DNA from: Moniliella sp. 'wahieum'
Taxonomy: Eukaryota
Reading direction: 5' to 3'
DNA: 64,000 nucleotides
NCBI GenBank assembly: GCA_003971905.1
Contig: RSEE01000097.1
Location: 62,001 to 126,000 of the forward strand
In this document: piece after piece, positions 835 to 64,000 of the stretch
Numbering within the stretch: the stretch's first letter is position 1
How the letters are laid out: the number at the start of each line of letters is the position of its first letter
Program-made: the position numbers and the translations under genes
Notes under the pieces: generated by a model
Database searches by the model: none
What the model saw: the letters and a program-made list of their open reading frames with translations, nothing else
What the model was told of the DNA's origin: nothing

Positions 835-3800
835 CCGCCCTGGCCTCGTCCAACAAAAGGCGGTTGCAAAGTGCTCAAAGATATTATATTTGAGTGGGTG
901 GCAGGCAGTGTTGTGTACCACACATGTATTACGTTGATGGCACCCAAATCCCTGTATTCATTTCCTCTCGTGAACGCGTAAGCCGACATCAGTTCCATTC
1001 AAAGGGGAAACGCCAGGCTGCTTGATGGTCTCCCATCAAGGTCGATTTTGTCCGGCGTTGCTTCTGTTGCTTCGCTCGGGCAGGAAGAACTAAGAAGGAA
1101 TCAGGCAAAATGGGTCTGGTTGCGGATAGCGGTGGCACCCCACATCTTTACACCTCGCTCAAACGACCAACACTGCAGGTTAGCGATCCTTGCCAGATAG
1201 GAATGGCTATTCAGTCCTTTGTGTCATCGTTATCCACTGAGGAACGAATGGATACAGTAGTGAAGAGTTACTTTTGGCGTTAGTGTATTGTCCTTTTCGC
1301 CTCTCTCTCAGGCCGGCTGATGGTGACTCATACCGCGGTCAGTACGCAGTACGCTACTCGGTTATAGTATGTGTGGCGAACGAAGACGCGACGGGGGGTA
1401 CGCCTGGTTCCGGCGCGGCAAATAGGGACCCAAAAACGAAAACCGAATACACCCTCAGTACTCAGTAGGATTGATGCAATGGATGGCATAACTAGTAATG
1501 CCCGCGACAGTCATCAGTAACTAGTACTACACCGTTGTGACATGTGACCCGTGAAACCCGCGCTAACCTGCTAACCGGTTAGAACCCGACCCACTCGGAA
1601 CCAGTATCCACCGATGTGATTCCTGTGATTGATGCGGACGGTGGGCAGCGAACGTTCAGAACGCGAGCGACCCCTGAAAATCCAGAACAGAAGACGGGGT
1701 GCGCCAAAAATGGAGTGGCAAGCTGCTTCAGCTTCAAGCTTCAAAAGCTTCTCGTAGCTTCCACTTGACGCTGACGATGACGACGGTGACTGGTGTGACG
1801 GAAAGTGACATTGACAGGTGACAAAGAGGCAGGTGACCCGGTGACAAGTTTCAATGTGACCGATGACCGGTGACCGGTGACACTTGACGCGCTCGACGCG
1901 TGACGGTCGAACCATTTCAGGTGCGCGCATTACACGATGATCGATGAACTGCGCTACGGAAGAAGACTGTGGATATGCCCCCCGTCCCCCCGTCTTCCTT
2001 CCCTTGGTGATATACACTTCGTGTATACGTTCGTCGATTAGCGTTCACGATCACGTACATTCAACACCACGTTCAACGGTCAACATGGTCAACAGTCAAC
2101 GTCAACGTTCAACCGTATCCACCGGCCACCACCGACACATCAATTGCTGACGGATGTAATCGATATACTCTTAGATCTTCACCTGTTATGACGCATATAT
2201 GTGTGTACTGATCGACTCTCTGTCTCAAAAATGCATCGTGTAGTTTCCCATCGGTCACTAAGATCTTCAACGTTCACTCAGGCGAGATGATAGCAAAAAA
2301 ATTCGCGGTGGTGAAGAGGTTGCGATATGTCTTCTCTATATAGCTCACAGTAAAGAGAAGAAGAGGACGAAGAGTGCGTTGCATACGAGGATAGACGCCG
2401 TAAAGAAGGATATCAAAAAGACAATAAGGACCTCAAGAGAAAAACGACCGAACGAGAGAGAGAAATGACGGACACAAGTGATGCACACACAAAAACAGAG
2501 CAAAAGAACCAAACCAAGCTGGATACGCTTCGGCACTGCGAGAGAGTGCGAAGGATCGAATCCTGAGCTACCGTGATGAAAGCTGAGACCTGAGAGATAT
2601 TATGACGATGATGTGAGAGGGAAAGACGGTTTTTGACGGATGAGAGGATATATCGTTTGACAGTCCCTTCCATGGCTATCGACGCTCAACTCTTGAAGAA
2701 TAACGGGAGAGGTACAGCGCGTCTACCCACCTTAACGCTTAAAACGGTCTTATGCCTTACGCGTTTTACTCTTTAAACCTTATACCGTTATGGTACAGAC
2801 TGGCGTGCAAGATCCCAAACGTGCTACCGGAGGGATGTACCGCGCGCATTACCCTTCAACATATATCCATGGATATACGGACGCGCGAACGAAGCTGTGT
2901 CCAATGCGAGCCATTGGGGCAACTAGTTTTACTTTGGGTACTGATGCGCGGATCGTGGGTACCCGGGTAAAAAGGTTTTGATCGTCGACTCGATCGGCGC
3001 TAGGTCTTAGATCCCTTAGGAGACTTATACGCATGCCGAGAGACCCCGGTGTTTTCTTCGGGGCCTACCCTGTTGTTGGGGTTTGTTTGCCTTGCAGCTA
3101 GGCGATGGTGACAGTAGGTGACCAACACAGGAGAGCAAGTAATTGAAAGGTAATGCTTGTGAGGCCTGAGGCCAATGATTATTGAGACCTGTGAGGTGTG
3201 TGAGGAGGCCTGTGGCCTGAAGCCTGAGGGGCCTGAAGCCCTGACACGCGGAGTCGACGGGCACACAAAACAAATAGAGGGTTAGGATAGTTTTGTTTGT
3301 TAAAAGGTGCCAGTGCCATCGTCTTCATGCTTGTGTGTGTGTGCATTTTATGCCAGCGATGTCAGCAATGTGAGCGCCGTGAGCGAGGATGAGGCCTGAG
3401 GGTGCGGCCCTGACGCGCGTGACGGAGATGTGTCAGACCTGTGAGTACTCAATCGAGTACTGTGAGTGCCTCGGGCTGAGTACTGAGTAGGGGAGAGGGT
3501 GAGGGGAGGGATATTTAAGCGCAACGTCCAAGACCGACGTATTAAGGGATACAAACACTGTTTGGTGTTGCACGTATCGTAGGTGGATCAACTGCATCAG
3601 CATCAATGGGCATCAATCTTGTATCAACAACAGCTGTGTGGGACCTGAAAACGTGGAAGGATTGAAGACGGTATATAGATCCCAAAACGTTGAACGTTGA
3701 ACTGAGCCTCTGATGAGCCTCTTCCGCGCCGAGCGCTCAGCTGAGCTGTGACATGTGAGCTGTGAGCGCTGAGCCCGTGAAGGGGGAGAGTATATCTTTG

Positions 3801-5436
3801 GGTACCAAGTACAGAGAGGACCGAGTGTATGCCGAAGAGGAGTCTCCTGGAATAGAGGGAGTTCATAGTTGTTTGTGCGTTTGTTGAAGACGGCACACAT
3901 ACAGTGTTTTTGCCATGAGAGATATATAGTGCCTAACAGTGATATGCTGACAGTAGAGCGCTGAGCCATCCAGTGGCGAAGAAGTGTTTCGGGGTTTCTG
4001 GTTGAGGGTGTTGCGGGGAGGTTATTATGTAGAGAGTGCTAATAAGCGCTAGTAGTCGCTCGGGTCCATAGTACCGACCTGCGCGTTTTGGGGCTTTATA
4101 GTTGGGAGCCCGAACCCTGTTGCTGTGCTGCATCCTGCCCGCAGGTCACGCGCGTCACGGTGAAGCACCAGTCAGGCGTCGGTGACGCGTGACGGGTGAC
4201 GGCCGCGTGTGACGGACGTGACGCTGGTCCGTGGCCTACAACAGCACAAAAGAAACCCTGCTCTTTATTGTGTTTTCTTTTGTGTTTTTCTTTGGACAAA
4301 AAAAAACACACAAAAAGAACCATCTTCACCCCTTTGTCCTGTAGCTCCAGCTCGTGGCGTGTGAAATCATACTCATTCCTTGAAGCTTGAAGCTTGACGA
4401 CGTAACGACTCACAACAAAGCCTATAAGGCCTGAGGCTCTAAGGATGCTTTGTAGATGGGCGGCGTACCATCCGTGGACGCGAAACCACAAGACAGAGCA
4501 GCAGTACTATATAGGGAAGAGGAAGCGGGAGGGGAGCACGGTGAGTGAGGAGCCCGTCGCGGCTGTCTGTCGTCCGTGCTTAGCGTTTACCATTAATAGG
4601 GCAATGATGCATGGCTCGTACAATTGCACGTATACCTCGGTACAAGCATCTTGTCTACAGGTGTGTGTGGCAATACATGACGCATAGCCGACGGTTGGGA
4701 TGACTTATAAGATGTGCTAGGCTTGCCCGGGGGCGCTGCATTCTATGCGCGCAACGTTCTTTTTTTGCGATTGGCCGCCACCCAACGTCCCACCACAGGT
4801 TCTTCTACTGTCTACCGGTCACTTTTTCCCACCCTGGGTTGCTGTTGTATAGTCCTGTGCCTGCGGCCGATGGGTGGAACAGCGGCCGCTGTGGCCAATC
4901 ATAATCGACATAATCACCAGAAGCATTCGTCCGAGCAATAGTAATCAGGACCCCCATTACACAGTAATCATCAGGCACCGGTCGGCGGCGCACGCGTGAG
5001 AGAGCACCATCCTGAGCACTTTGAACATTGCATGGGGAGGGCAGACCCAGCAGAGAGAATGGGCGGCAGCTACGCATGGAATGCGGCCGGCTCGCATCGC
5101 ACCCGGCCGCTGTTGTGCTGCTGTTGAAGCGCTGACGCTTCTTCTAGTCACTAGTCGTCTATATCCGGACTCAGAAGCTCTGGCCGAAGAGTGCGGCCGG
5201 CCGGGGGCAGGCTGCTCCCGTCTGTTCCAGTGCTGTTCCAGCGCTGCGCCAAGGCTGCTCCAGTGCTGCCCCCCCCCGTCTCCCATCTCAGATCTTGCTC
5301 AGACTGCTCGTGCCAGATCTCAGAGGCTCCCGATCACATGTCACAGCAGACTCGCCCCCCCTCCCACATTCCAATCCTCCTGCGCCTGCCTGCCCACGCC
5401 CTGCCCCCACCCCCCCCCCCCCACCCCACCACCACC

Positions 5437-16180: not shown

Positions 16181-19100
16181 GTCCTACCCGCTGCATTTCC
16201 CCTCATTTTCCCACTCCAGTCCCTGTATAACGTTCAAGCGCGCTTCAACGTTCATGTACGTTCATGGTTCAAGCTCCAAGCTCCAAGCTTCCAGCGTACT
16301 TGGCAGGTTTCCAGGGCATATAGTAGGGATAGCTTTTTGGCCCAGCAAGAACCGCTATATACTAGCTATGCGGAAATCACACTCGTCAACAGCTATCATC
16401 AAGTATCATCGAATCATCCACAGACCATCTCATCTCTCTTCCCTTATAATGTGAGTGGGTCCGTTTCTCTCGCGAACGTTATCAATCACCGGCACGATAG
16501 ACCAGCCGTTTCGATCATTAAATTTCCCGGGGTCCTGGTAGTAGGCTTTTCGATGGTGATGAACAAACTTCTGCACGTTGGGCCGCTTGGGACGGGGCGC
16601 CCGAATGGTCGTGTGGTAGTGCATATACATGTACAGTTGTTGCGTACGTTGCGATGATCGAAGAGAGGTGACCTCTTACTGTGGTTACCGGTTACCGGTT
16701 GTGCGTCTTCCTGGGCGTCTTCTCTCAGCTCGTCAAAAATACGAGTCATGTTCAACGTTACCGGCGTTACGCGTTACGAGGCAACCCAGTAATCATGTAT
16801 CAGTGCATCAACAGCATCAACACCACGCATCGCGCATCACGCATCGCCTCAAGCTACTTCGACTTACAGTTGTGGTACGGAAGGGTACAGAAGGTACAGA
16901 TCTCAGAGCGTTCAAACTGAATACTCAAACTGAGTAACTGAGTTCAATACCAACAACACTCAACGTTGAATCGCTGGCAAAATTAAGCCACGTCGGAAAT
17001 TTTGTCCTTCTCGGTCGGACTCGCACAGGTAGTGGGTTGTGTTTGCACGCGCTGATGAGCGTTGTTCGTTAGCGGCCGGGCAGTGGGGGAAGAAAGGTCT
17101 GGAAGAATAGTTTTGGTCGCCACAACACGAATAAGTCAAAGGTGAGGTCACCCGTGAGAGACCGAGGGACGAGAGAGCCAAAAAGAATGCTTCGTGTTGA
17201 CTGTGATCCTCAGGCTCCCAGTCGGTAGACCAGGTTCGCCTCGGTTCCATCGGCTTCCACGCTGACGTCCCTGCGTGTCACTGTCCCTGTGCCCTGCACT
17301 CTCCTGTGTGACTCACTGTCCCTGTGCCTAGTCCGGCCTCCTATATAGATGCCTCTGTACCCAGACCCAACTCTGGCTCCAATCCATCACCTTCTCCTCA
17401 TCCTTCTGCCCGTCCGGCTCCCTAGGCCAACACTTCGTTCGTCTTTGCAAACTATTACTACTGGTAGTAAAATTGCTTGCGTTTTTCTCTTTATAGTTTC
17501 TTAGTTTTGAGATTTGAGATCTGAGATACGCCGCTGCCGTAGTCCTACGTACTCAGGCTGAGTTCAGCGCTTCGACCGACACCTACGTACCTACTCCACA
17601 CCCCTTTCACAGAAGTCCACAACCAAGCTCCGATTGGTCCACGCTGTCCTGGTCCTACGTACACGTGCGCCTCGGTGTCTCAGACAAGCGTATATAGCCC
17701 AACACGCTACACCACGTTATACCACACGCTACACCTGCTACACCCATCCGGCCCCCAACCTCTCTATATATTATACTACCACCATCATCCATCACCATCC
17801 TACTTCGTTTCCCGTCTCTCGGTGGGTGTCAGTGCATGCAGCAAAGTAGGCCGCAACAGGTCACAGCATTGGCGGTAGTGCCTGGTGGTGCACCTATCCG
17901 ATTTCTTGCCTTGTCTTATCGATTATCTCACCCTTATCGATTACCTACCAGAATCCTGCTTTGATCTTCAAGCTTCAACATAGACGACATAACAAGACCG
18001 TATAGTTCTCTCAGGCCTCAGGGCTTCAGCGCGCCTTCAGCCCAGACCTGTGGCATGTGTGACATGAGAGACCTATAAGCGCGGCCGGAGCGCGGCCGGA
18101 GTGCGGCCTGAACATCAGAACGCGGCCTAGGTGTGCTTGAGCGTCTGAACCCGAGGCCCAACAGAGGCCAGCGGCTTTTCATCTTGAAGATCAAAGCTTA
18201 TTGGCATCTGAGAAGTAGAATAGAGATACACCTGTGATGTTGATGAATGATTTTGTGGCGTGCGTGCGTGCGGGATTAACTTATCGATTGAGTATGGATG
18301 GTTCTCGGCCTTCGGGTTTTAACGAGGCCGGCTAGGCGCTAGGGGCTTAGGAAGCTGGGTGGCAGAAGGGGCAGATCTACATAACTCAGTTGCGCATGCG
18401 CCCCGGTCCCGAAGTACGAGTGGGATGCATGCGACAGTGTAACACTGAGTACTGCGTACTGGTACTGTGACTGCACTCAAGACGGGTTTAGGGCTTAGCA
18501 GGGCACTGGGAAGATGGAGTTTCGAGGCTTTCTTCGGCGCCGCCATCCGTTTGCACTCGGGGCCGCACTTGGCCGCACTTGGCCGCACATTGCTCCCTTT
18601 GAAACCGCGCACGCCGGCGATCAATGATCGAATGATCCGTGCTTGTCAAACTGCGTGACGCATGACGCATGATGCACGATGCATGACGAACAACTCAACT
18701 GGGGACCAGTGACCGGTGACCTGTGACCTGTGATTAATGATTGATTAATGATTCACCGATGATTAATGATTAATGATTAATGATTGCAGTTAGACCTACG
18801 TAGCATCCGCTTCAGCCACACACTTGATAGAGTGGGGCCGCGCTGTATATTCGCTTTTACCTGTTTTTATACGTTGCTAGGCACTATAATTACCGGCTAC
18901 TTTTAGGTCCTGGTAGTATAGGCTCAAAACTGGAAGATGTGCCGCTACGTAGGAACTGGACAGAGGCTCGTAGATGGAGCATTCTTGGCATATGGCAGCA
19001 GGTTCCTCTGCTACCGGCTACCGTTGCTCGTCGCGTCGCCGCCATATATGCAACGGTTTGCGCAGTTCCCGCTTTAGATGCTTGGCAGTGTCTCTGAATC

Positions 19101-20934
19101 TGAAGTTGCCACTCGTCACGCGTCACACGTCACGCGTCAGGCCTGAGGCTCAGAACGCGCATTGAACTTCTTGTTGCCATCCTTTTCGACCCGCGCGCGA
19201 ATGTTTGTGCTACGTTTGGTTGCTGCTGTGGACAGCTTAGAAGGGCTGCGCAGAGATAGAGGATCTTTCCATAAAATGCGGGAGGACGTGTGGCGCGTGA
19301 CGTGTGAGATCTGAGATACGACAACATTACGTGCAAGCCTCTCCGATATGGCGCATGATGCAGAATGTCGGGATGGTTTAGAAGGAGTTGGATTAAAGAT
19401 GTTTGCTGATGCACTGATGTGGAGAGGCGCCCAGAGGGGCTGTGTGGTGCCACTCGACACGGCACGGAACGGATGTATTGAGTACTGATATACTGATAGA
19501 AGAGGTGGATTTTGTTGGATTGATTTTGTGCGTGCATAGCGACCGTGTGGACCTCGGAGAGAAGAGGCGGAGACGGTGGGGGAAAGTGTGGAATCCGCAT
19601 GTGTACCCTGTACGCCTCCTCCATATGTCGCATGGCGCAGTGCCTTGAAAGCGTGCGTGAGCATGCAAAAGGACATGTGACAAGTACTATCCCGACGCAT
19701 TGCGTGACACATGACACATTGTGGCACTAATGACATGGACATGTGACATGTGACATGTGACATGATGACACGTGATGGGGAGGCAGTTATCACATGTCAA
19801 TCTTAGGCGGCACCTGTGGGGGCGTGTGGACATGAGGCCGAGGCATGATGCATGAAGGTGAAAAGCAGATGGGGTTAGAGAGGGTCTGGACGATCGATTG
19901 CGGTCGAGAGATAGGCGTTGGTGATAGGAAGCAAGACGAATTAAAGGCTACAGGAGAAGGCTACGTCGGTGGCTTACGCGTGTACGCGCGCAGCAGCAGT
20001 GTTCGGAGCCCGCAGTGCCTCGGGACCACTGACTAGTGAGGCCGGAAGTGCCCCGCGATGGGTGAAGCCAGTCACCAGCATCGTCGCAACAGAACGCGGA
20101 GCACGTACTGTAACAAAACGCGGGCCGGTGGAGCTCTCAGTCTGAGCGCTGAGGCTGAGCAGCGTAAGAGTGACTAGTGACTAGTGACTAGTGAGCCCGT
20201 GGCGTGCATCGGAAGGTCGTCGATGGTTTTGATGATCGGTATCGATGCTGGTGTGGTTAGAATGGCAGGCGATAGGGGGAGGCGAGCGTGTGACATGTGA
20301 TTGAAGAACAGGGTGTTCACTGGTACGTTCAGTACGTTCCGTACGCAGTCTCAGTGACCTGTGACCGGTGACCTGTGACCGGTGACCTGTGACATGCGGC
20401 ATGTGATGGATGATGCATGATGGTTGATGGTTGATGGTCGCAGATATGATGCATGACATGCATGATGCGCCACGAGCGGCAGCACATCCAGTGCGGGGGG
20501 AAGTGCGCGCTGGTGGGCGGGGGCAAGGGGGCGGTGTGCGCGCTGGGTGGCGCCCAAATCGTGATCGGAGGCGCAGGACCCTGGAGGCTTGACACGCGCG
20601 CCGTGCTGGGCCGAGCGGAGGATCGATGATCGATGATCGATGAGGGTGAGCAGGGCGCTGGGTCGCCTGAGGCCTTCGAGGCGGAGCGGCGCAACCGCAT
20701 CAGACCGTATCCGAGACAGACCGGGGGGTTAATGGAGTCTTTTCATGCTCTCCACGCGATGCCATCTGCGCCATGGGCGGCGCCGCTCTTGGGGCGGCCA
20801 GTCCGTCACCATTAATCCACGGCCCACAGCCCGCGCTTCTGCCCTTCTCCCCCTCCTCTTCTTCCCCCGCCACCCCACCACCACTACCACGTCGCCACCC
20901 CCCCCTTCTCCAATAGCTGCTGCTCTCCACGACG

Positions 20935-24951: not shown

Positions 24952-25793
24952 GGCATATTGTCATCCGTCAATATCCAATGCGCTCCATCACCCTCTCTTC
25001 ATCGTCTTCGCACTGCATGAAGCTTGGAGATTGAAGCTTGAAACACTTGAACAAGCTGGAACCCATACCTTAGATCGAACATACCGAATACCACTGACTT
25101 GGAAGACTCCTGTTATCGATGCCCTAACATCCCTTAGGCCTTCCCCGGTAGCAGAGTACCACCCGGCCCCTAGATATACCTAGATGAGACCGAAGGTAAT
25201 GATAGTACCACCCTATTACTTGGACCAGCGAGGGCCGCACACTTGCTTCTTCTTCTCTATTGTGATGGAATACGGTTTGCGAGCCGAAGATGCTAATGGC
25301 TGATGGTCTGCAATGAAGCTTGAAGGCCCCAGCGCTCCTACTAAGATATCCAGTGGCTTAGTTGTTTTGCACGGCGGACTCAGGCCGAGAGTTCTCAGAA
25401 CTGGAGGTGGCGACCTGCGTGGCCTCCTTTTCTCCGGTAGCAAGGAGGGCAGCTTGAAGTGGCCGGGCAAGCCCATGCCTTTCAGGACGCAGTGTTCAGC
25501 CGCCGACATCGCCTGTGTCGACGATAAATTGGATGTAAGTCGGTGGTAAGATGACTGGACTCAGCCCTTTTTGTCCCGCCAACAGCGCTGGAGGTTTGCC
25601 ACAATCTTTAATCCACGCCAACCACTACAAATCACCTATCACCCATCACCCATCCTTCAGGCCGCCATCAATTGCACCAATATTCCACTCAGTACTCAAC
25701 CCTGGCAAGACCGCCGCTGTCAGTCAGGCAGAGGGGGGACCATGCATCGATTTGATCACCCGCTGCCACCACCTATTTGGGCATAACTTTGCC

Positions 25794-26833: not shown

Positions 26834-26945
26834 GGAACTGGTGCTAAGTTGCGGGTGGCAAGGGCAACAACTGGGGATGGGCGAGCGGAAGGCGTGCAGA
26901 GAAAGTGCCCGTTTCAATTTCCATCTTTCGCTTCAAGCTTCAGGC

Positions 26946-33153: not shown

Positions 33154-34343
33154 GGTGGCTGTACAGCGGACCAAGAGGTAACAGGTAAACAAGGAAACAG
33201 GTAACAGGTCAGTCCGACGAGGTCCGGGCAGGGCACTGGTGCGCTACGCAGGCAGCGCATGCGCACAGCGGAGGACATAGCATGGCCCCGCACGGGCGCG
33301 CCGAGGGCCAGGAAAGGGTGGGAGACGCACTGGATACTGAGGTAGCTTGGCGGCAACGGGTAACGGGTAACCTCTTGTCGGCAGCGGCAAAGCAAGTGGA
33401 GCGGCCAAGGGACCCAGGCGGCGGTGGACGGGTCGGGTTGCGGGTGTTGAGCTTGCGCCGTGTGCCGCAGCATTTAGTAGGGTTGGGTCCTTTGTTTTTT
33501 CTTGTGTGATGTTCGATGATCGTCATCGATCGTCACTAGTCACTAGCCACTTGCGACATACACGTTGCACCGAGCGCCTTTCCGCCCACAACAGCGGAAG
33601 GAAGGTTGGGATTGTGTGGGGTATACAGCCAGGGTTGCTAGTGCATGATGCATGATGCATGAGCATGAGGATCTGAGATCTGGATCTGTGATCGATGATC
33701 GATGATCAACGAGATTGGAGGGGCCTCAGATCCACCAACCCCCCTCCCCTAGATTACCATGGCCCCTGCTCACTTTGGGCTTCAAAGCTTCCTTGCAGCC
33801 CACTGATGGCCGCCTGCCTTGCCCACCGACCCGGAAAATCGTTGTCCGATCCTATGTCCAACTGGATATGGGCAATGGAGTTTCTCTCACTGGGCACAGA
33901 CACACCAAACCCACTGATTCGCCCAATGAAGATTTGACATTGCCTCTACACAACAGGAGCAGTCGACGCGTTGTGTCTGTTGTCCACATCGCACAAAGGT
34001 GCTATACCACAAAGCAACAGGAGAGCTTGCAACTAACAGACAGATTATCGGGAGCGATTCCAAGGCAAGCAGGGGGGATAGAGTAGGAAATCAGGGTATA
34101 TAGAGGGGGAAGAAACGAGGGTGGTAACTAGTAGTAGGAGTAGGGAGGAGTATAGGCAGTTGAGATGGAAATGCGGTAGTGGAGGGGAGTGGGTAATGCC
34201 GGGGGGCAAAAACGTCACCCGATCGTCAGAATACGACTCACGTTGGCAATTTGGCAAGGGACTGAGGCGTGACAACGTTTTTGGTACTGTAGCAAAGGCA
34301 AAAAAAAGAGAGAAAGAAAGAAGTGGACGTTCTTCAATTTGGT

Positions 34344-38858: not shown

Positions 38859-41206
38859 GCGAGCGGGAGGAGGGGGAGCAGGTGGTGGTGGTGGTGGTGG
38901 TGGTGGTGGTAGGGTGGTGGGGTGGTAGGGGTGGTAGGGGAGGATGTGAGTGCGTGAGTGTGGCTGACGGGTGGTACGTACACCAGACTGTGTTATTATT
39001 ACCTGCTAGCCGACACAGCTCCTGCTTCCAGACAATCGAAGGCGCATCTATGCAGACACGAGCCACAGTGCTGGGTGCCGGCTGCCGCCAGTGCATCTGC
39101 ACATGCTGCGCTGGTGCCCTGGCGCACCAAGCGCTAATACTAAAGACCAGACGCCCTCCGCCTGCCGACAGAACGACATGCTCAACGTTACTTGCTGAAT
39201 CGCCCGTCCCCCTGGGCCTGGCTCTAGGCCACACTGGCCCCCCTGCACCCTGGTGCGCAGGAGAGCAGTGTGGGATGCGAGGTGGGGCAGCAGCGCATGC
39301 GGCAAGTGCTCTGCGTGCGTGTGCAGAAGAAGCGCCGTGGCTGCTGTGGCGCACCGCCTACCAGCCCTACCACGCCCTACCCTGCCCTCCCAGCCGCCTG
39401 ATGCTGATAGCAGAATGAAATGTTTGTCTCCGCAACTATCAACTCTCGACTCTTCCCCCTTCCACGCGCTCCACCCCCTGCAAAACCCTAAGAAAAATGA
39501 TCGATCATCGACTTCAATTCTATCGGGAGGCTTCCGTCTTCAAGCTTCAACGTTCAAGCTTCAAGCTTCAGATTCACCGGCACCCTTCCATCCACCACAC
39601 AGAATATATGTATGCGGACCAAGTGCGGAAACCATATGCGGCGCCAAAAGGGGTCTTGCGGCCCAAACAGCGTCTGACGATCGGGCCAAGCCAAGCCAAG
39701 CATATACTGATACGCAGTCAAGCCAATCGAGAGGTGGCCGTGGAAGCACCTTGTAGCACCTGGTTAGCTTACTGTGCGTGGTGCGACCGGTGACCGGTGA
39801 CCCGGTTACATATCAGATGCTGCTCATCCTTTTCCAACAACCCGCAGACATCAGTGCATCACACACACCCTTGTTAGCTGATACACTGATGCGCCGATGG
39901 GCCCTGCAAGGCCCTGCACCTTCGCGGGTGTGTCAAGCAGTTGTCAAGCAGTTGCCAAGCTTCAAGCTTCAAGCTTCGATCTCCACCTCATATACGTAGC
40001 CATCCACAGCCATATAGCGTAGTAGGAACGCTGGGGGACTGGTAATTACCGTTACCGGTTACTGGATAGGCCCTACCATTCTCACAATAGAGCCTCTCCA
40101 GAGTATACCTCCTCTCCGATTGCGAAACCGTACCCTGCATTCCCTTCCCGTCGGTGCGTCACGCCTATTTTAGTACACTAGCCCCTACCGGCCATCTCTA
40201 GCACTTTCCAATAGAGGTGCTGCACACCATCACACTGCTCAGTAGATCGTGCAAGCGGTATGATTATGATTGCAACCCAAAGCCCAAACCACAGGTTGGT
40301 GCATTTCGCCTTTTCCATGTTTTGCATTGCCCCCCCCTGAAGATGAGGTCGATGATCGATGAGGCCGATGAGGCCGATGGGGTACCATCTGTGCATCATG
40401 CATCATGTGCATCATGTTCCTTCCCAGAGGGAAAAAGAAACATTCTCCAGGCATCCTCCGTCGGTGCATCTGGACACCAATTCAATGCACTATTACCAAC
40501 TGCTTGTAGCGCGCATATTGCTCTCCATAAGCGTCTCGCAAACGGTGTTTCCAAATTCCATCTTTGCATTCTATCACACACGCAATGACGTTCCATGGAA
40601 GGAGGGATAGAGGGCGCATGGGCTGCTAAAAAGAGAAGGCAATGGGACAAGCCATTGCAGGACAAGCCACAGATGGCACGGCTGCTGCGCTCGCGGCCTT
40701 CCACAAAACGCACATCAGGTGTTGGACGTTGAACGTTCAAGTGAACGTTGATTGGTGTGGCAGGGAGGGCCTGTGCTGCCGATTGCGGCCTATGCGCTGT
40801 GCCTATAGGCCTAGCTACTAAGCGTCTAGGATGCCAGCTGTTAATGACGCGTTGCGTAACCGGGTAACCCGCACGTAACCACACCAGCCACAAGCCCATC
40901 TGTCGATCTGCGCATCAATCATCATTAATCGATAATCATCGATCATCGACTCACACTCACTGTCACTGTGATATGTGACGTGTGTGGACACACCACTGTG
41001 GCGTACCCAAGTGACATGCATGTCACACGTGTCAACGTGTGGCGGACGTGTGCCAGGCCCGTTCAAACGTGTTCAACGAACGTTCATCTTACCTGCGCTA
41101 AAATTTAAAATGTTGATGTCGAAATGTGCAACTTGTGTTGTGGCGACTGAGACGCAAGGCTAATATACGAGGAGACCACCGGGCCTACGGCCCGGTCAGC
41201 TGCTGC

Positions 41207-43883: not shown

Positions 43884-45162
43884 TGACGTCCCAGTCCAGC
43901 CTTCGACCGTCGCGGCGCATTCGCCCGCAAAGCTCAGCTTTTCCCAAGAAGCGCAAGGTTTCTCCTTTCGTCAAGAGAACTGTTATGTGTGACATGAGTT
44001 CTCTTCCCATCGTCCGACCGCTTCGGTACGTTACCCGCGTCTCCCATCAACCTTACGTATGACGCAGAAATAAGTTGTGACGGCGCTGTTGATATGCTGA
44101 TGTTGATGCGATGGGCCAGGCGAAATAACACTGGACAATACCACTGTCACAGTCGGGGCTATAAGGCGAGGGAGACCAGAATCGGGACTAGGCCAAGGTG
44201 TAGCAATCGTTCGTGGGGAAGAACCAAGAACAGAGGACATGTGGTGCGAAGTGAAGAAACAGGGGGAGCGAGACACTCGAGACGAAGAAATTGGAAATGG
44301 GAGCGAGATCAGCCAAACTATGACAACCACAAAGCGCCCTTTGGCGATCTGGATAGCACCAGGCTGGACCGCCTAACCATGCACCGAATAAATGGGAGAG
44401 CTGTGCGACCCCCGGGAATGATGATGTCTCGGCACTGAATACTACGTCAATCTCCACAGTGATGGCGACCCCACTACACTGTGGCAATAGTCCCAGCACC
44501 AGTGGCCACAATGCCCTGTGCCCCTCCCATGCCGTCCTGGCTGCAACATGAAAACGAAACCAACCCGTCGGAGACAAAACGCTTAAGCACGCAGATGTTG
44601 CGGGACCGGAGTTGCCAAAAAGGTTGTTATGCTTCCAGCGCCGGAGAAAGAGCTGTTTCGACTGCTGGAACAAGTGCCAAGCGACAACAATCTCAAATAC
44701 CAGGGTTGCACTCAAGTGCATTTCTTCTCGTTGAACATGACGCGGGCAACGCGTGATATTATGTCACCACTGCAAACGGCGAACACAATAAGATGTTAGA
44801 GCACTGGAAGGCATTAAGTGGCGAAGAGTTCATCATTGCTCAGATGGTTCAACATGTTCTCCGCTCACATGCCTATACCTTTGCACGCTCATTAAAGTCC
44901 ACGCGCGCTTCAAACGGGTTGAAAGCGAATGGCAGGCGCCGGACGGTCCTAACCGGCAGTGTTGGCGACTGTGCATTGCTTTCGCAATTGGGTTTGGCGC
45001 CAACCAATCGTCGAGCAGCTCACGCCGTATGAGCAGCCCCTCCCAATCGCAGTAGATGGGAGGACCACCCCTCTCGATGTTGAACGGATCCGGAGAAGGC
45101 ACATATATCTCCCTTTATATTGTGAGAGAGAGCAGGACGACTTTGATGACTGCGAAGCGTAG
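43884..45162 (+). CDS. Hypothetical orphan protein, spliced and frameshifted, with a basic NLS
   Basis: ATG at ~43884 reads MTSQSSLRPSRRIRPQSSAFPKKRKVSPF. Intron-like GTACGT...ATGAC.CAG at ~44026-44067. A run of + strand ORF fragments continues to TAG 45162. No recognisable domain. Confidence 0.3.
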
Positions 45163-47757: not shown

Positions 47758-48705
47758 AGCAAAACCCATCTAGTTTACTGCAACATGCAACTGTTCCGCT
47801 GTTTTATCCCAACCGTTGCGTGCGCTCATCGGCACACCGTGCACATCTAACTAAAGTCTACCTTTGCTGCACCCTCTTCATACACCATCCTCTCCTTGCT
47901 CTCTCCTTGTTCTTTCCTTGCCTCCTCTTTCAGTCCCCTTCCGGGCCACATTTTTCTCCCCCCCCTCCCCATAGAGTCCTGATCCTGCCTTGTTACCCTG
48001 CCCCCCCTAGGGCTTATCTTGTTCTCAAATCAGGTGTCTCTCTGTATGGCGGCATTTACCCTCTTTTCATCATCTTTTCGTTCTCTGTCTACTGGAAGTC
48101 GCAAGCCCTCCCACTTGTGGTGTACACTGTAGTTTGCTGATGTCGATACCCGTCTCTGTTCGATTGCGGATCTCACCGTCGGATTCCATTTGTTTTCTTT
48201 GTCGAGGTCTCAGCGCTCAGCCTGGTTGGTTCGGATGGCATGTGCCCAAACGACTTAATTGTCCTTTTCTTGGTTTGCACACGGACTGGTTTGTATCCTT
48301 CACTTCGAGGAAGAGAAACTCCAGCTTCCGACTTTGTTACACCTTATGGCCTTATACCCCTTCGCTGAATCTGTGCTGTGCTCTTCATTATAATGCGCCC
48401 TCCCTATACCTGTGCCCCGTAGTGTCCCACAGACGGGACAATCCCCAGGGCATAGTGACTAGAGAGACTAGTGCCTAGTGACTAGCTTGGCTAGCGACCC
48501 GTACTAGTGACTGTTTTCGTAGCGCTGCTGAGGCTCGGCCCGGCGGATCTTTTGCTGCATGAAATTTGCAACCTCCCACGACCTCCCACTGCGGTTGCAA
48601 CATTTCAGCCGGCCGGCAATCCTTGGTCCGAGGCGAATTGAACATTGAAGCTTGAAGCTTTGAAGGAAGCAATTGCCATCCGATCCGCCGGATGGATCCT
48701 GCCGC

Positions 48706-48736
<31 letters not shown>

Positions 48737-48763
48737 CTCGCCGCCTCCGCCAGCCAGCTCAGC

Positions 48764-49458
48764 ATGTCGCAGGCCCAGAAGACCACGCTCAGCCTCTACC
48801 GCGGCTTCATCCAGGCCTCGCGTCAGTGGCCCATTGACAAGATCCGCAAGGACCTGCAGTTTGGCGATGCGCTGCGTGCCGCACCCACCGAGCCTTTCTC
48901 CGTTCCCCGCCGCCCGAGTCGCGCCTCATGGACCGCACCAACGAGGCCGAGAAGGCGGCTGGTAAGATCCACATTGTTGGTGTCTACACCCTCGTACCGA
49001 GTCTCAAAATTCAGGCAAGCATCGTTGGACTTCACTCAAGCTCATTGACGATGAAAAGATCCTCGAGGGCGGCAAGAACTTGCGCACGATGAGTGAGGAA
49101 GAAATCAAGTACGCCAAGCGCTCTCTCCATAGCCTCCAACTCATCCTCAACAACAGGCCCTCCCAAAAAGTACGTTTTGTTCTTACCCATGTCTATTCCT
49201 TTTTTTTTGGCTCTGTTTGGTTTGGTTTGGCGTTGGTTTGGTTTCCTTCCCTCGCCTCCCTTGTTCTTCTTGCACTCACACCACGTATCCTGCCCAGTTC
49301 CCTACGCCGGAAGAAGTGCTGGAACCACCGAGCATGCCAACCTACTACGCCAGATTGCGTACCCAGGTGGCTATGCCGAGCAGGGCAAGGCTCCACCTGC
49401 TTTGACCTTCGCCCAACGAGTCAAGATCTTCATGGGTTACCGGCCTCACCAGGTCTAG
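48764..49458 (+). CDS. Small mitochondrial protein, Cbp6/UQCC2-like; probably two introns
   Basis: MSQAQKTTLSLYRGFIQASRQWPIDKIRKDLQFGDAL ... SLHSLQLILNNRPSQK|FPTPEEVLEPPSMPTYYARL. The WP.D..R and LxPxSxPxYYxxL pattern matches this family from memory. Intron GTACGT...CCCAG ~49170-49297. Confidence 0.55.
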
Positions 49459-50403
49459 ATTTGCCCTGTGCCCCCCTCTAATGGGACATGTGAGTCGGGT
49501 CTCCCATCCAGTCCCGTTCCTATCCAGTCGTCGCCTGGAAAGATAGCTGTTCGGGTCGAAATGCTCATGTTGACGATGCCGGGTGTGTCCCATCGCCGCG
49601 CGTAACGCCCTCGCGCATAAGGACTCAGTGCGGAGCCGGAGCCAGAGGCTGGAAGGATCGGACCGGAGGTAATGGACAGTAGTGAGGCTTCCACTCCTGA
49701 GCGAGGTAGCTTTCAGCGGCGATGAGTGCAGCCATCAGTGTGGCTCTGCTTCCCGGGCAAGTAGTTTGGGGGGGGGGGGGGGGGGGCAAAAGCCCACCTG
49801 AGCGCGAAGGTAGGGTGCCCCCCTCTGCGCAGGTGCTAAAAGTTAGGCAAGTGGTGGACCCATTCAGTTGTTTGCCGATCTGCCTCTGGTCCCTCCCAGC
49901 CCGCTGGTAGCCGCCTATATTCTTTGCGACAGTCGTGCTGGGTTGGTAGAGAGACTGTGGTAGCGCTGGGGTCTGCACTGCGTCGGTGAACTTGGGTGCG
50001 TAGGGCGAGCGCCTACATGTGAAAACTATTCGCTCCCGTTCCTCTTTTCCTTGTTCCTTCCCTGCCCCCATCCAATTTGCCCCTGATACCATCAACAACA
50101 CGTGTTGTGTGCCAATGGATGCAGGGAGGGCAACGTAGCGCCCCAGGACCGCCCCTAACATCCACTTGCACCTTCCCAATCCAAATACCTCGACAGAAGC
50201 CTTAGCCTGAGGCCCAGTTGTTGGTCAATTCATGAAAAAGGTGAAGCGGAAGTGAAGGTCATGCATCATGCATCATGAATGTTTAACTTGAACGTTCAAC
50301 TTGAACGTTCATGGAATGAACAGTTGAAAGGATGGCGGTTCTGTCTGTGCGCGTTCTTACCAGCCAAGCAGCTGTTTGGCCAAGACGACTCTGACTCGGC
50401 GGC

Positions 50404-52604
50404 ATGCGACCACCAGGGGGACTCACCTCGATTCCATTTCGCCACTACTCTTCCCGTTCGTCTTGCCTGTCCTCCACTCTGCCCGCGCCTCCGCTGCTCC
50501 CTTGCTTCCGTCTCCGCCTCCGCTCTGTGCGCACCCCACCCGCACCCCTGATTCTCACGTCGAGGGCCCGGCCACTCCAGTTTCTTTCTCGGTCCCCACT
50601 CGCCTCTGCCTTTGCCTCGACATCGACTTTGACCTCGGCTTCTGCGCCTCGAGCCCCTCTTTCCCTTCGTCTGCTCCCGCTACACCTCGTCACATGATAC
50701 GAAAACGCCCACCGACATCGATCTCGGCCTTGAACCCATCGAGGCGCAGATCTGCCAGCTGCTCGACGACACGTGCCAATGGATCCAAGCTACCACCCGA
50801 TCCTCTCCCCGGACCTGGAGCCAGAGCCCGACGCGGATGGGAACCGCCCTCCCACGGCGGGAAACGCTGCAAGCGAACGAGTGGAAGTGCGAGGCGCGCA
50901 TTGCTGGGGATGGGTGCGCGACAAACTGGCCGGGTTTGCTTCGGACGATATGGATGTATCGCTTTCGAGTTTGACGGGCTTTCATTTTGCCCACTATCTC
51001 AGGCTCTACCTTGAATCGGACGCGTTTCATCAGTCTCCGCTCTGTGCCCAGATTGCCGCTCTTCCCAACAAACACAGCAAGGGCGCAATGGGTACCATTA
51101 GCAAGATCGAAGCCAACCCGGAGCAGAGCAAAAACCTTGAGACTGCCACTGTAACCGTGCTGGGCCGGTCGCTCGATTTTGTCAATCTGCGCAAGGAGAC
51201 GTACCTGAAGAACAGTCGGATCCCAATTCAAGAATTTGGCACACCTGTCCAGGACGCCGAACGGCGGGATTGCACCATCAATGCGCTCTTCTACAATGTG
51301 CACACGCACCGGGTGGAGGACATGACGGGTAAAGGGTTGTCCGACCTGGCGCACGGCTGTATCCGTACCCCTCTCGAACCGTTCCAAACCTTTGAAGATG
51401 ACCCGCTGCGGATCCTGCTGTGTCCGCTTTGCTAGCCGGTTCGCATTCACCTTCCACCAGGACATTACCGCCGTCCTGCTCGGCCCGCGCGGTAAGGTCT
51501 TGCGACAAGAGTTGGCCTCCAAGATCAGTCGCGAGCGGATCGGGATTGAGACAGATAAGATGCTACGTGGGCCGCACCCTGCTCTTGCGTTAGATCGGTT
51601 GCATGCGCTCCAGCTCTTCCCCATCGTCTTTCGTCCTCCTCCAGAGCAGGATGGCTCGTCTTCCCCTCTGTATGTGGCCAACCCCACCGCCAACCCACCG
51701 CCACCGCCACCACCGAACCCGTTGCGCCGTTGCGCTCGAAGAGGCGGTGGCGTTGGCAGCCCGATTGGACCAGATTTGGCGGGATGCAGAGAAAGCCCAT
51801 GAGGCGGGGACCCCGCCTTCGGCTCGGAGCGCACCTCTGTTTGATCCCGAGCAACGGCGTCGGTTGTTTTATGCCGCGGCGTTGTGGCCGCTGGCGGGAC
51901 TAATGACGTGGACCCATGCTGCGGAGACCAAGGGGAAAGCGGGCTCAAAGGCTCCGAAGCGCAGTTTGGTTTCGGCGACCGAGGTGGTGTTGCTGGAAGG
52001 GCTTAAGCTTGGGGCGAAATCGAGCAAGGAACCGGTCGAAGCGCTGTTGAAGGCGGTTGCTGCGCTCGCTGAGTTCAAGACCTGGGAAACGGCAGCGAGG
52101 CAACGGGGCGACAAGTTGGAAACGATTCAGACGCAGCTGTACTTTGTACTGCGCAAACCCTGCTTTGTCAACGAGGCCTACCACCTCTCCCCCGCCTCAG
52201 CCTTCATCTTTGCTGCGCTGGCCCATACTCATTCGGGTCCGGGGGGTTGGACGCCCACCTCGCCTCCCCACCGACTTGGACCGCTGGTGGAGCTGGATCG
52301 AGGAGCTGGAGATGGTACGGCGGGCGACGGACCGTCCACTGTTGAATGGTATACAGATCCAAGACCTGGTCGGCTTTGCACCGGGCCCGCTCATTCCCGC
52401 CATCCAACACCACGTGCTGGAATGGCAACTGTGGAACGTCGCGCCCGACGCTACCGCCGGTCCTGCTGCCTCGGCAGTCGCGGCGGCCCAAGCGTGGTTC
52501 CGCCCGGCCTGGGACACAGGCGCCATCTTGCCCCCCGACGAGGTGCACGGGCCCAGGCGGCTGCAGCGGCCAAGGGCGCCAAGAAGGCCAAGAAGAACGC
52601 TTGA
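50404..52604 (+). CDS. CCA1: CCA tRNA nucleotidyltransferase (class II); frameshifted
   Basis: GWVRDKLAG..SDDMDV, IEANPEQSKNLETA, LDFVNLRKETY, FGTPVQDAERRDCTINALFYN, IRTPL..TFEDDPLRIL, RFASRF, KISRERIGIE, PLLNG. Confidence 0.92.
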
Positions 52605-54055
52605 AGCTTGAAGCTTGATGTATTGATGGGCCTACTGCTTCGGAGGTAGGAGCGTAGTGGCGCAGGATGGGCATGTCTATTAGCTTGTACATATCGAACT
52701 TCAATGCTGGATGATTGACGTTAGTGACGGGGGTAGGACAGGTGGGGTTTGCGCACAACGGGTGCAGCACCCAGCTGGACAGCGACAGACGGCGGAGCGG
52801 AGCCACCAAGTCGGCTGTTGCGGCTACGTTGCTACGAATTAGCGCCACATCCAAGGGTGGCGCGGGCGGGTGGCGTAGGTGATCGATGATGTGTGATCGA
52901 TGATCGATGATGGAGAATGTGTGACGGCCACGTGATACACATGATGCCCAGTCTGAGTACTGTGATATACTGAGACTCAGTTACCAGTACCCACAGCGTG
53001 TACTCGCTGCTTTGATGCAATTCATCTTCTATATGGCCGCCATGCACCGCCCAGGCGACGAGATCCAAGATCCAAGATGTGACATGTGCATGTAACATGT
53101 AATACCAGGACGAAGCCGCCCGCAGGGGTGGCAGCGTGGCGCGTCAGGCACGTTGGGAATGTCAGGAATGTCGGGAATGTCGGGAACGCAGGCGAGGAAA
53201 GGCAGGACGCGCCGAACAAGGCGATGATCGATGATCGATGATCGATGTCGATGGCCCTCGTCCAAGGACGCCCCAAATGTGGCGTCGCGGACACTAGCAC
53301 TACGCGCTACGAGAGGCAGGGGACGGCGCTTGTTCGGCTCGGTTCGGCTCGTCCGGCTGGCATGGTGCATGGCGGGCGAGGCAGTGGCGAGGCAGCACAT
53401 GGGCGGGGCTTGCTAAGATCTGAGATCTGAGATCTGAGAGCGCCACACAGGGCCTCAGAGGCCAGAGGACAGCAGCGCAGCGCAGGTGGGGGCAGCGGCA
53501 AACTGTGGTAACATGTGCCACATGCTTGGACAGCAAGGTGGGGTCTCCTCCTGCGCTCGTTACTGCGACAGCTGAGCGGTGAACGCGGTGAACAGCACCC
53601 GCATTGGATACATCGCCATGGGCCGGAGAACAGTCGCCGGGGTGGCCCCTGGTGGCCCAGGGTGGCTCCGGTCTTGGTTCGGCCTATCTGTAAACACATC
53701 TGTCCTGTCTCGTCTCGTCATCGAATCGATCCGTCACGCGTCACGCGTCATCGATCGCCACCGCGTCCTCGGCAGGATCATCGATCATCCATCCCCCTTG
53801 GCGCCAGACCGTCTCCAGCACGTAGCATGCCCTCTCGCGCGTCACCGCCACCACCACCGCCATCCTCAATTGCAACTTCCCCTCTCTTGCGGAACCGTCC
53901 CGCTGCCATCGCAGCCATCCTGGTCCAGTGCGCGCACCGCTTCGCTCCTGCTTCTGCTGCTGCACCCCCGTCATTCGCCCTCTTCCCGCCCCTCTTCCGT
54001 CCGCCTCCAGTGATTCTTCCATCAGCAGCAGCTGCTGCCCCTCCCATCCCGCGCC

Positions 54056-54407
54056 ATGCCGATGCCCCGCAAGCCCAATGTGAATGAGATGAAGCTCCGC
54101 CGCCTGACAGAGAACAATGCGCGGCTACAAGAAGACCTGGGTCGGCCGCGCATCCCGGTCTCTGAAGCTAGCCAATCGTACGTGGATCTGCTGCTCTGGT
54201 TGTTCTCTTCGAGTTCTCATCGATCTCCGATCTAACCCCCTTGGGCTTCTTCCTCTGCTGCACCCATGAACGTTGAACGCAGCTTAGTGGCCTATTGCCA
54301 AGCCACGCGCGACCCCCTCGTTCCTTCGGTTTGGGGCGCAGTGGACAAGAAGGACGATCCCTATGCCCCGAAACAAGTTGCTACCGGATGCGAGTGCACA
54401 TCAGTGA
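54056..54407 (+). CDS. STE18: Heterotrimeric G-protein gamma subunit (Ste18/Gpg-like); intron 54178-54282
   Basis: [80 protein letters not shown].. fits the fungal GGL pattern ([28 protein letters not shown]). The CAAX end needs indel correction. Confidence 0.9.
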
Positions 54408-62003: not shown

Positions 62004-64000
62004 TGTGGAAAATGTGGGTGGGAGTACGCAAGAGGTACTGGGGAACGATGGGGAGGGATAGGGCGTTTTCTGGGCGCGGGGAGGGGGCTTCTTATACTGC
62101 TACGGCGGGAATGCCAGTGTGGGTGCATCATCCTGGCCATCGGCAGCAGAGCAGGGAGCCGGCGTGGGTGCTCAGGCTGAGCGGGGAGGCCGGCGGAGGA
62201 TTGTGCAAGAGGCAAGTGCTGGACGCTGGCCAGAGCTGGCGATGGTGGGTCGACATTCGCCTTGGCCGCTGAGCCAGAAGGAGCAGTTTAATTGGGAGGT
62301 TTAACTTCAGCCTGGCATGGCGCCAGTGTCACCACCCCTCCTCTTCCGGGCACAGGGGCACTCTTCGGTCCGTGCACACACCCTAGGTTGTGAGCGCACC
62401 TGTGCGGCCGGCGCTACCAGGCACTGGCTGCCCATCATATGATCGGCCATCGATCCATCCTGCCTCCCCATCTTGCCAGATCGGCCAGATCCACACCGGG
62501 CACCCTCTGCCATCACTAGATCGCCTATCATCTTCCCTTCCATTTCTTCTGGCTCGAGCGCGTGAGCTAACCTCGCCCCTCCTCGTGAATATCAAACTGC
62601 ATAGCTCAGCACACGCACCACTCAGTCTCAGTGGGCAGCTGTGCCTACCGCAGCCAGCAGCTACACCACACCAAATTTCAACCCAAGTGGGCGCAGCTCC
62701 ATCGAAAACCCAAACTTCCGCATTCGAAGGGCACACCTCATGGTTGACATGTTGACATTCAATATTCAATGACCTTACTTCTCTCAGCGGGCCTCGCCTT
62801 CAGGTCAAAACGTTGCAGGGACCGTGGAACCGACGAGAGCTCGTTCTCAAAAGCATTGGCAGCAGGCTTAACTGTGCCTCTTGGAACTTAGTCTCAGATC
62901 TCAGTTGTCACGGGCCTAGCTAGCGAGGCGGGGATGGGGAATGGATATGGTATTCCAGAGCTATACTAAGGAGAGCCAGACCTATGGGCCGGTATATAGG
63001 CGCCGGGTTCGGAGGCAGTGGAAGCTCGTGGAAGGTCCGGGACGCACTGCCCCTCCGGTGCACTGTGCGTATCGGGCCACGTGTCACTGAAGGCCGATGG
63101 GCTCTGGGCCACTGGGCGGTCAACATCAGTTGGGAGTATGTGACAGTGGGGAGAGCATCGAAAATAGCCACATCCCTGGGTGTGTGCTGCGCGCGAGAGT
63201 ATATGTGAGCCCCTCAATTCTCTTCCTGAGGTCTTCCAATACCGTAGAAAAGCCTTCCCATATCGGCCTTCAACTGCTTTACAGACGAAGATCGATCCGA
63301 TTATCAGGGATTGTCGCTTGTCAACATAGCCTAGGTACACACACGCCAGATAGTTGATCGCGGTGCCACAGTTATCCGCTAGAGAATCTTGCTGTTGTCG
63401 AGGAAAGAATATTGGAAGGAATGAGACTGCACAGTGGCCGCGCAGCAAACCGGCTTGGGTCTACGGGTGCGACTAACTTCCAGTGCGACACCATCCCAGC
63501 CCTGTCTCTTGCGTGTAATTATTTGATTCCGGGCGGTGGATTCTTCTCCCTTTGGGGCTTCTGGGTGAAGCTCGAAGTGCGATTACTTTCGTGGAAGAGA
63601 TGGAACTTATGCGGAGATTGTGATCAGCTTGATGGTTATCGGTTATCGGTTACCGGTTATGAGATGTCTTGCAAACCCACCCACACAGAAGGATCAGATT
63701 GATCACAACATCAGATGTGCTATACCCCAGATTGAGGAAAATGGCGTCGTCTATAACTGGTATCGCCATACTCCTCACATAATCCCACGGTCCACTACTA
63801 GCCTCATAACCGACATGATAATCTCTCTCTGTAGTATCTCTGGGGGGTAGGCACCCTAAGCGGGACCCCCCCCCCCCCCCCCCCCACCGATGTAGACTTG
63901 AGGCTGAACGGATGGGTACTTGGCGTACTCAGGCCTGTTGTGGAGGCAAGATGGAGAACCCACCGCGTTTCAGACCCAAAGGTCCCTAGCACTAAGCTGG

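Follow-up and report, generated by a model that had tools for sequence, protein, structure and literature searches.

Palindromic heptamer units in intergenic DNA

The stretch of the Moniliella sp. 'wahieum' genome analysed here, a window of 64,000 nucleotides (C97:62001-126000) in an assembly of 69.5 Mb in 223 contigs, carries between its genes many short repeats with a period of 7 bp. A reading of the sequence alone had described their unit as TGA or TCA, rarely TTA, followed by a perfect 4-bp palindrome, the core, and had noted that the arrays are rare in coding DNA. The counts bear out this distribution, as 101 of the 104 units of the window lie in intergenic DNA (32.2 kb), three fall within gene spans (29.2 kb) and none was found in the 2.5 kb made up of retro-elements. 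Gene spans were drawn by eye, and gene names are our own reading except where a Pfam match is given. The units are clustered, 49% of the gaps between them being shorter than 200 bp compared with 14% under a uniform spread.

All 14 array sites listed by the sequence-only reading are present where it had placed them, although at 3477, 3691, 3763 and 4183 only one unit is perfect and the next one is degenerate. The comparison with a Markov background that it had suggested confirmed the excess of palindromic cores: on the plus strand of the window, 98 of 180 matches to T(G/C)A-N4-T(G/C)A have a palindromic core, whereas Markov simulations (40 each for orders 1, 2 and 4) averaged 3.4-5.2 and did not exceed 11. 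Genome-wide, TGATCGATGATCGATGA gave 666 matches and its reversed control 7.

For larger counts, the window was combined with 80 stretches of 10 kb into a sample of 864 kb, or 1.2% of the assembly. Stretches L001-L060 were picked with knowledge of where matches to the array motif lay and L061-L080 were spread over ten additional contigs; unit density is alike in the latter, with 166 TGA/TCA units per 200 kb compared with 717 per 864 kb in the whole sample. The sample holds 858 units at 663 loci, which extrapolates to about 69,000 units or 53,000 loci in the genome. When spacers of 0-20 bases between two TGA triplets were tested, a clear palindromic excess was seen at 4 (717 versus 80 expected) and at 11, the length of two units (126 versus 0.7), with small excesses at 5 and 6 (54 versus 33 and 24 versus 11). 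Within 464 kb, 167 of 300 exact period-7 repeats consist of a palindrome plus one base; the same composition accounts for 145 of 725 repeats at period 5 and for 4 of 62 at period 9. Thirteen of the 16 possible cores had been reported from the window, and these are present, but AATT and ATAT occur there as well and had been overlooked. All 16 cores are found in the 864-kb sample, including AATT (10), ATAT (27) and TATA (6), compared with 1.4 for each AT-only non-palindromic core.

One-step differences between two copies of the region

A second copy of the region is present on contig C95 with 83-95% identity, and we treat it as the other haplotype. Together with a second pair of contigs, C62/C17 (9.6 kb), the haplotype alignment comprises 72.8 kb. 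With regard to the 104 units of the window, 50 are identical in C95, 15 carry substitutions, 38 overlap an alignment gap and one is unaligned. Indels of 7 bp stand out between the window and C95: there are 47 of them, whereas 6-bp indels number 16 and 8-bp ones 14.

We write a site U as ab-TNA-xy, with a prime for the complement. Over the whole alignment, 19 indels convert a plain U in one step: 14 into U+y'x'+TNAxy, four into U+y'x'+U and one into a complement variant, in which the middle base of the triplet is complemented. Among 45 clean 7-bp indels, defined by flanks without a gap and with at most one mismatch in 6 bases per side, 14 correspond to U+y'x'+TNAxy at sites without a prior palindrome and six to the same change at sites that were already palindromic; one is the complement variant, one a weaker form and two are plain tandems. 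The form U+y'x'+U accounts for 4 of the 10 clean 9-bp indels. The rule fits none of the clean indels of 5, 8 and 10 bp and 2 of the 17 of 6 bp, and a 3-bp duplication of TNA fits 1 of 76 clean 3-bp indels. The control centres ANT, CNG and GNC fit 1, 3 and 1 of the 45 indels of 7 bp and 0, 1 and 0 of the 10 of 9 bp. All 15 one-step events of the window pair are intergenic; 7 of them lie within 100 bp of an older unit against a background of 34%, so that new events are not clearly nearer to old ones than other intergenic TNA triplets.

Since deletion cannot create palindromic cores, we infer that one-step gain is the natural origin of the units. The earlier argument that ordinary slippage does not account for the cores holds for their creation, whereas existing arrays can be lengthened by slippage or by repeated hits. 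Eight indels are compatible with slippage (six at palindromic sites and two plain tandems) versus 19 at sites where no unit pre-existed, and slippage microsatellites were rejected as the origin on the latter ground. A compound AGTGGCT/AGTGGCG array at 26709-26835 (TGG-CTAG type) is long and has period 7 but no TNA centre; it may be a secondary target, or else a unit that mutated and was then lengthened by slippage.

Set beside the 2,505 substitutions counted, the 19 one-step events would amount to about 9,000 per haploid genome. At a yeast-like mutation rate of 2e-10, this is equivalent to about one hop per 20,000 generations, a rate for which few copies suffice and which has to be read with the caveat that part of the 2,505 substitutions may be assembly errors. 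More than half of all indels between the window and C95 (544 of 1027) are 1 bp long, and many genes, such as that at 5437-9000, have frames broken by 1-bp indels. These are probably long-read errors, or possibly signs of the decay of one subgenome.

Target and product family

The triplet described as TGA or TCA, rarely TTA, is correct in its fixed T and A, but the base between them can be any of the four: per 10,000 sites, TGA is used 30.9 times, TTA 24.9, TCA 23.5 and TAA 16.6, compared with 5.1 for the next triplet. As a class, TNA centres are used at 19.1 per 10,000 sites, ten times the usage of any of the 15 other centre types (1.8 for the next best of the 16), and ANT, CNG and GNC at 0, 0.4 and 0.4. 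No position beyond TNA is biased among 193 events. The triplets of a unit are direct repeats, with 346 TGA..TGA and 371 TCA..TCA pairs versus 48 TGA..TCA and 30 TCA..TGA pairs. Of 365 single events, 316 have the same middle base in the two TNA copies, which is what a duplication would give, and the complement variant accounts for 22.

A matrix of products was counted on both strands of the 864-kb sample, with ANT as the control centre and half-palindromic sites removed beforehand. The numbers of palindromic (P) bases and of bases trimmed on the other side form a graded series. The dominant product, P2 with two bases trimmed, was found 248 times at TNA and once at ANT, followed by P2 with one base trimmed (59 versus 1), untrimmed P1 (47 versus 4), untrimmed P2 (21 versus 1), P1 on both sides (14 versus 0) and the P3 forms (11 and 6 versus 0). 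Plain 7-bp duplications show no excess in this strict matrix (62 at TNA versus 96 at ANT), and because of this the hairpin step looks obligatory. The odd palindrome of the Ac type is likewise not in excess over the ANT control, and isolated odd palindromes around TNA are at most slightly enriched.

The extent of the duplicated target follows from the bases next to the palindrome. Where the palindrome is followed by further bases, these reproduce the left flank in 93 of 111 cases for 1 nt, 38 of 83 for 2 nt, 4 of 20 for 3 nt and 0 of 12 for 4 nt, and the right arm is mirrored only at 2 nt (944 of 1307, compared with 66 of 252, 7 of 178 and 0 of 37 for arms of 1, 3 and 4 nt). Due to these limits on left-flank copying and the sole right arm of 2 nt, the duplicated target is 7 bp long with TNA in its centre, its edge coinciding exactly with the axis of symmetry. 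In mixed chains with two cores, counted by hand, the predicted left flank was found in 22 of 32 cases, the right flank in 22 of 32 and both in 15 of 32. A 4-bp duplication with three P bases, as expected from a Top2-like stagger, was dropped, as T precedes N in 76% of the 316 single events and the left flank is copied. Three features of the footprints of flank-hairpin transposases, namely a duplication of fixed length, P bases that form an even palindrome with the end of the flank and graded trimming, were found, which argues for end joining after the formation of blunt hairpins on the flanks.

Conservation and genomic surroundings

Between the two copies of the region, 32 of 844 array positions (3.8%) and 625 of 14106 flank positions (4.4%) carry substitutions (Fisher p 0.44), although units had been chosen for being perfect in the window, a bias that favours conservation. 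There is no sign that the arrays are selected binding sites. Their confinement to intergenic DNA can be ascribed to frameshifts and perhaps also to open chromatin. The clusters and polymorphic sites of the window, together with the transposase genes discussed below, are listed in Table 1.

Table 1. Coordinates of unit clusters, sites that differ between the window and C95, and transposase genes.
Position	Strand	Feature	Remarks
1455..2276		Cluster of 8 loci with units in part perfect, in part decayed	Cores GTAC, CTAG, CATG, AGCT, CCGG, TCGA, ACGT
2701..2705	+	Empty site TAACG	C95 has TAACG-CG-TAACG (one-step 7-bp form)
3160..4397		Cluster of TGA-type units, far upstream of RasGEF-like gene	C95 is filled at polymorphic sites close to 3240 and 4003-4007
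3390..3401	+	Filled site TGAGG-CC-TGAGG	C95 has plain TGAGG
4900..4915	+	CATAATC-GA-CATAATC, full 7-bp duplication plus 2 palindromic bases	C95 has single CATAATC
16245..16776		Cluster with TCA and TTA units	Cores ACGT, CCGG, CGCG
17515..20643		Densest cluster, about 24 loci, upstream of RING/PH (Far1/Ste5-like) gene	Contains TGATTAA x3 (18760-18783), TGACTAG x3 (20171-20194) and mixed-core chains
18063..18069	-	Single 7-bp site	C95 has 7-bp duplication plus 2 palindromic bases
19850..19860	+	Plain TGAAG site	C95 has complement variant TGA-AGCT-TCA-AG
20289..20300	-	Filled site TCACA-TG-TCACA	C95 plain
25687..25698	-	Filled site TGAGT-AC-TGAGT	C95 plain
33533..33705		Cluster between RPS19-like gene and second RING/PH gene	Cores CTAG, TGCA, TCGA
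39540..41108		Cluster with AATT core (41099)	In-register chain TCA-AGCT-TCA-ACGT-TCA-AGCT at 39540-39570
44076..44082	+	Single TGTGACG site	C95 has TGTGACG-CG-TGTGACG
48210..50275		Scattered units	Cores GCGC, AGCT, TGCA
52602..53787		Cluster between CCA-adding-enzyme-like and G-protein-gamma-like genes	Cores AGCT, TCGA, CATG, GATC, CGCG
62759..63659		Units upstream of pyruvate decarboxylase gene	Includes ATAT core (62759)
L102:5598-8734 (C17)		EnSpm-like transposase gene
L105 (C62)		EnSpm-like transposase gene
L104:3262-6872 (C34)		EnSpm-like transposase gene	Long open frames

The best relative of the pyruvate decarboxylase of the window comes from Tilletiaria anomala (54%), which places the fungus with the smut-related basidiomycetes. 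Two diverged RING/PH genes face each other at 20936-24950 (plus strand) and about 34530-38590 (minus strand), and a third copy lies on C1 (L084; 71%). Near them are a RasGEF-like gene and, at 54056-54410, one resembling G-protein gamma; this set of genes suggests a signalling or mating-related neighbourhood.

Search for the responsible element

Profile searches for PF05699 (hAT), PF13359 (Harbinger), PF18758 (KDZ) and PF18759 (Plavaka) gave no match, which does not show absence; the PF05699 dimerisation domain, with 0 matches here, was likewise silent in the control genomes. PF02992 (EnSpm) matched at C17:557095-557541 (E 1e-12) and weakly, below the cut-off, at C34:514908-515195 (E 7e-4). When the C17 frame, the C34 frame and a distant relative were used as protein queries, the only loci found were C17, its allele on C62 and C34. 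The closest relatives of the C17 gene are about 30% identical to it. The EnSpm-like loci look like immobilised or old copies, and the genes without detectable ends are candidate domesticated transposases.

A 193-bp candidate for a miniature inverted-repeat transposable element with an AGTCAGG duplication was rejected, since it is unique DNA in both copies. The integrase of long terminal repeat (LTR) retrotransposons was also rejected as the agent, as solo LTRs have varied 5-bp duplications and do not follow a TNA rule. A solo LTR (TG..CA) at 17195-17432 is flanked by a CTTCG 5-bp duplication and is lacking from C95; elsewhere, at least 40 sequences match it almost exactly. Further solo LTRs, likewise with duplications of 5 bp, are located at 44146-44325 (ACCAC) and 62906-63125 (TCAGT). 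A repeated piece of 1.9 kb at 41166-43050 is missing from C95, and its copies elsewhere often occur as inverted pairs. By eye, we take it to be what is left of the 3' part of a non-LTR retrotransposon, now broken, in which a CCHC finger and a motif of restriction-like endonucleases can be made out; it has no Pfam match.

Discussion

We propose, with a probability of roughly 0.72, that the units are iterated excision footprints of a cut-and-paste transposon which forms blunt hairpins on its flanks and makes a 7-bp duplication centred on TNA. The agent would be a transposon of the RAG/Transib/EnSpm type. The element would insert at ab-T-N-A-xy and duplicate the 7-bp site U, and upon its departure both flanks would be sealed as blunt hairpins, similar to the reactions of RAG1 and Transib. 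A host nuclease would then open the hairpins mostly 2 nt beyond the tip, leaving 4-nt 3' overhangs (xy-y'x' and the mirror form on the opposite side), which could be retained, trimmed or deleted during end joining. If one overhang is kept and the other lost, the commonest product, ab-TNA-xy-y'x'-TNA-xy, arises with a net gain of 7 bp, perhaps aided by pairing across the self-complementary T-N-A, and the palindromic core would thus be a copy of the two bases adjoining TNA. Such a scar would hold two TNA targets in 7-bp register, and renewed hits from both sides as well as slippage could generate arrays with same or mixed cores, whereas scars in coding DNA would be purged due to frameshifts. The direction of gain, the transposon intermediate, the EnSpm/Transib-like clade and the hairpin-opening enzyme are the inferred elements of this proposal. 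Of the two explanations that the sequence-only reading had offered, a symmetry-generating process agrees with the footprints as far as hairpin opening and fill-in are concerned, but its 4-nt stagger has to be replaced by a 7-bp target on TNA. Sites for a dimeric factor, the other explanation, do not fit units that arise in one step at plain TNA, use 16 cores and show no extra conservation.

Several observations speak against the excision footprints. No element flanked by an NN-TNA-NN duplication was found in the approximately 0.96 Mb scanned (1.4% of the assembly), and scans of this DNA for target-site duplications combined with terminal inverted repeats (TIRs) gave weak candidates in similar numbers, 22 at TNA versus 18 at ANT. 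The rejected 193-bp candidate counts on the same side. The C17, C62 and C34 loci show neither inverted ends (CA..TG) nor a duplication within the 10-16 kb read, and the C17 transposase gene, with its allele on C62, occupies the same place in both haplotypes. P2 on both sides was found 0 times in the product matrix, even though symmetric hairpin opening would allow it, and in a looser count plain 7-bp tandems centred on TNA were more frequent (68) than those at other offsets (28-38). In addition, 21 of the 45 clean 7-bp indels match no exact rule, several of them being one mismatch off, and the indels are unpolarised, so that each might be a deletion between direct repeats. Finally, known CMCT elements duplicate 2-5 bp (PMC12730594).

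Could the units have formed by other means? One might envisage a process without mobile DNA, in which a nuclease, either of the host or a transposase acting at cryptic sites, makes cuts in the two strands around T-N-A at a distance of 7 nt; before the ends are joined, the two mirrored bases would be added by priming on the self-complementary TNA, through fold-back or across the ends. This would account for the 7-bp duplication, the TNA centre and one dominant product without an element, and would agree with the failure to find one and with the presence of EnSpm-like genes that lack TIRs. However, fill-in of a staggered cut should mostly yield plain 7-bp duplications, for which the strict matrix has no excess, and the untrimmed forms U+y'x'+U and U+y'+U require a hairpin at the end of U. 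No eukaryotic enzyme is known to make a 7-nt cut around T-N-A, and we regard this process as unlikely. Template switching during replication, in which 2-5 bases of the opposite strand are copied and the return via the T-N-A pseudo-palindrome leaves a miniature inverted triplication, yields both the main form and the complement variant without a break. It is nevertheless highly improbable, as ANT, CNG and GNC centres should serve equally well or better but are almost unused, arms should vary in length whereas only an arm of 2 is seen, odd palindromes isolated around TNA are barely enriched, and the copying of the left flank ab remains unexplained.

The clustering of the units in intergenic DNA might in turn be expected of selected binding sites for one or more dimeric factors that read T-N-A half sites at a 7-bp period. 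Such selection is very improbable given that the arrays are not conserved beyond their flanks, that 53 of the 103 units which could be aligned are not the same in both copies, that all 16 cores are in use and that the 8- and 9-bp forms violate the period; coding DNA would exclude 7-bp insertions in any case. Some arrays might still have been put to secondary use. Arrays made by sequencing or assembly errors would be in keeping with the many 1-bp indels and broken frames of the assembly, and a search for sequencing runs on 12500-22400 of the window returned none. An artefact is nevertheless unlikely, and in our judgement scarcely credible, because the C95 copy, which was assembled separately, has 50 of the 104 units in identical form at the orthologous positions; furthermore, the units avoid genes and old units contain substitutions.

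Transib elements duplicate 5 bp of target DNA, and the target of PIF/Harbinger elements is TNA or TWA, similar to the T-N-A target of the units. Several known systems resemble the excision footprints proposed here. The hAT, Transib, RAG and MULE transposases have been shown to form hairpins on the flanks and to leave footprints (PMC5499845), and in RAG hairpins the opening made by Artemis lies 1-4 nt 3' of the tip (PMC2175297; PMC4914130). As described in these sources, the P nucleotides at RAG coding joints and Transib donor sites match the proposed footprints in that the flanking DNA forms a hairpin, the palindrome is blunt and even, the hairpin is opened a few bases 3' of its tip, and the ends are trimmed and joined (PMC5499845; PMC2175297; PMC4914130). 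They differ from the 7-bp, T-N-A-centred duplication, the one dominant product and the heritable scars in tens of thousands seen here. EnSpm transposases share catalytic motifs with Transib and RAG1 (PMC12730594), and of their active relatives in fungi, CNIRT6 duplicates 3 bp and CNEST 2 bp (PMC12810828). CACTA excision footprints are mentioned, but not spelled out, in the available text of a further study (PMC6379663). EnSpm/CACTA (CMCT) elements resemble the putative agent in having fungal members, PF02992 matches at two loci of this genome and excision footprints, whereas canonical members, as summarised in these sources, make a 2-5-bp rather than a 7-bp duplication, and no TIR-bounded copy was found in the DNA scanned here.

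In Candida albicans, Ac/Ds leaves short P insertions with two dominant products, and its palindromes centre on the base complementary to that beside the element and are odd (PMC5873905). The hAT7 elements of rust fungi make 7-bp duplications in basidiomycetes (PMC12730594). Going by these accounts, hAT elements are similar in their short P insertions, in one or two dominant products in a fungus and in the 7-bp duplication of hAT7, but the odd form of the Ac type is not in excess here, and hAT7 was compared without its target consensus. PIF/Harbinger elements differ in a duplication of 3 rather than 7 bp (PMC12730594). The '10-bp repeats' of Ustilago maydis, suggested to be footprints of transposable elements, are likewise numerous short scars in the genome of a smut that retains few elements, and the part of their description available mentions no palindromic core (PMC4081816). 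Taken together, the mode is like that of RAG/Transib joints, whereas canonical EnSpm elements disagree in duplication length and hAT elements in symmetry. Literature searches returned no description of this repeat pattern.

With regard to other organisms, a second core lies within 30 bp at 3 of 121 metagenome loci with TGATCGA arrays, and for this reason such arrays alone are not diagnostic. Arrays of at least three TGATCGA units, with no other core present, occur commonly in contigs that are unrelated, often rich in GC and apparently bacterial (L106-L226). At two metagenome loci, L189:300-360 and L199:285-330, TCGA and ACGT arrays adjoin each other, in exact register in L199, where the array precedes a Russulales-like F-box frame whose sole named relative is from Lactarius (58%). 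These two loci hint at the same process in other basidiomycetes. A search of metagenomes for the two-core pattern gave no match, and the multi-core signature is absent from 11 viral loci with an AGCT array.

We speculate, with considerable doubt, that an undescribed EnSpm/Transib-related lineage with a 7-bp TNA-centred duplication has long been hopping at low copy number in this genome, perhaps driven in trans by immobilised host transposases, and that its scars, at about 53,000 loci, might be a main source of new intergenic DNA and of more than half of the heptamer repeats. If the excision footprints are correctly identified, tandem repeats would have a way of arising in which slippage is not the first step, and in which transposon traffic writes palindromic microsatellites by regenerating its targets in register. 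The scars would then document, across the whole genome of a basidiomycete, how hairpins are opened and ends joined, with thousands of events dated between copies, and would allow the target rule and chemistry of a nearly vanished element to be deduced. Any fungal genome can be searched for the signature, as its pattern is a simple one, and an element with blunt hairpins and a 7-bp duplication would widen the range of the RAG1-related clade beyond 2-5 bp.

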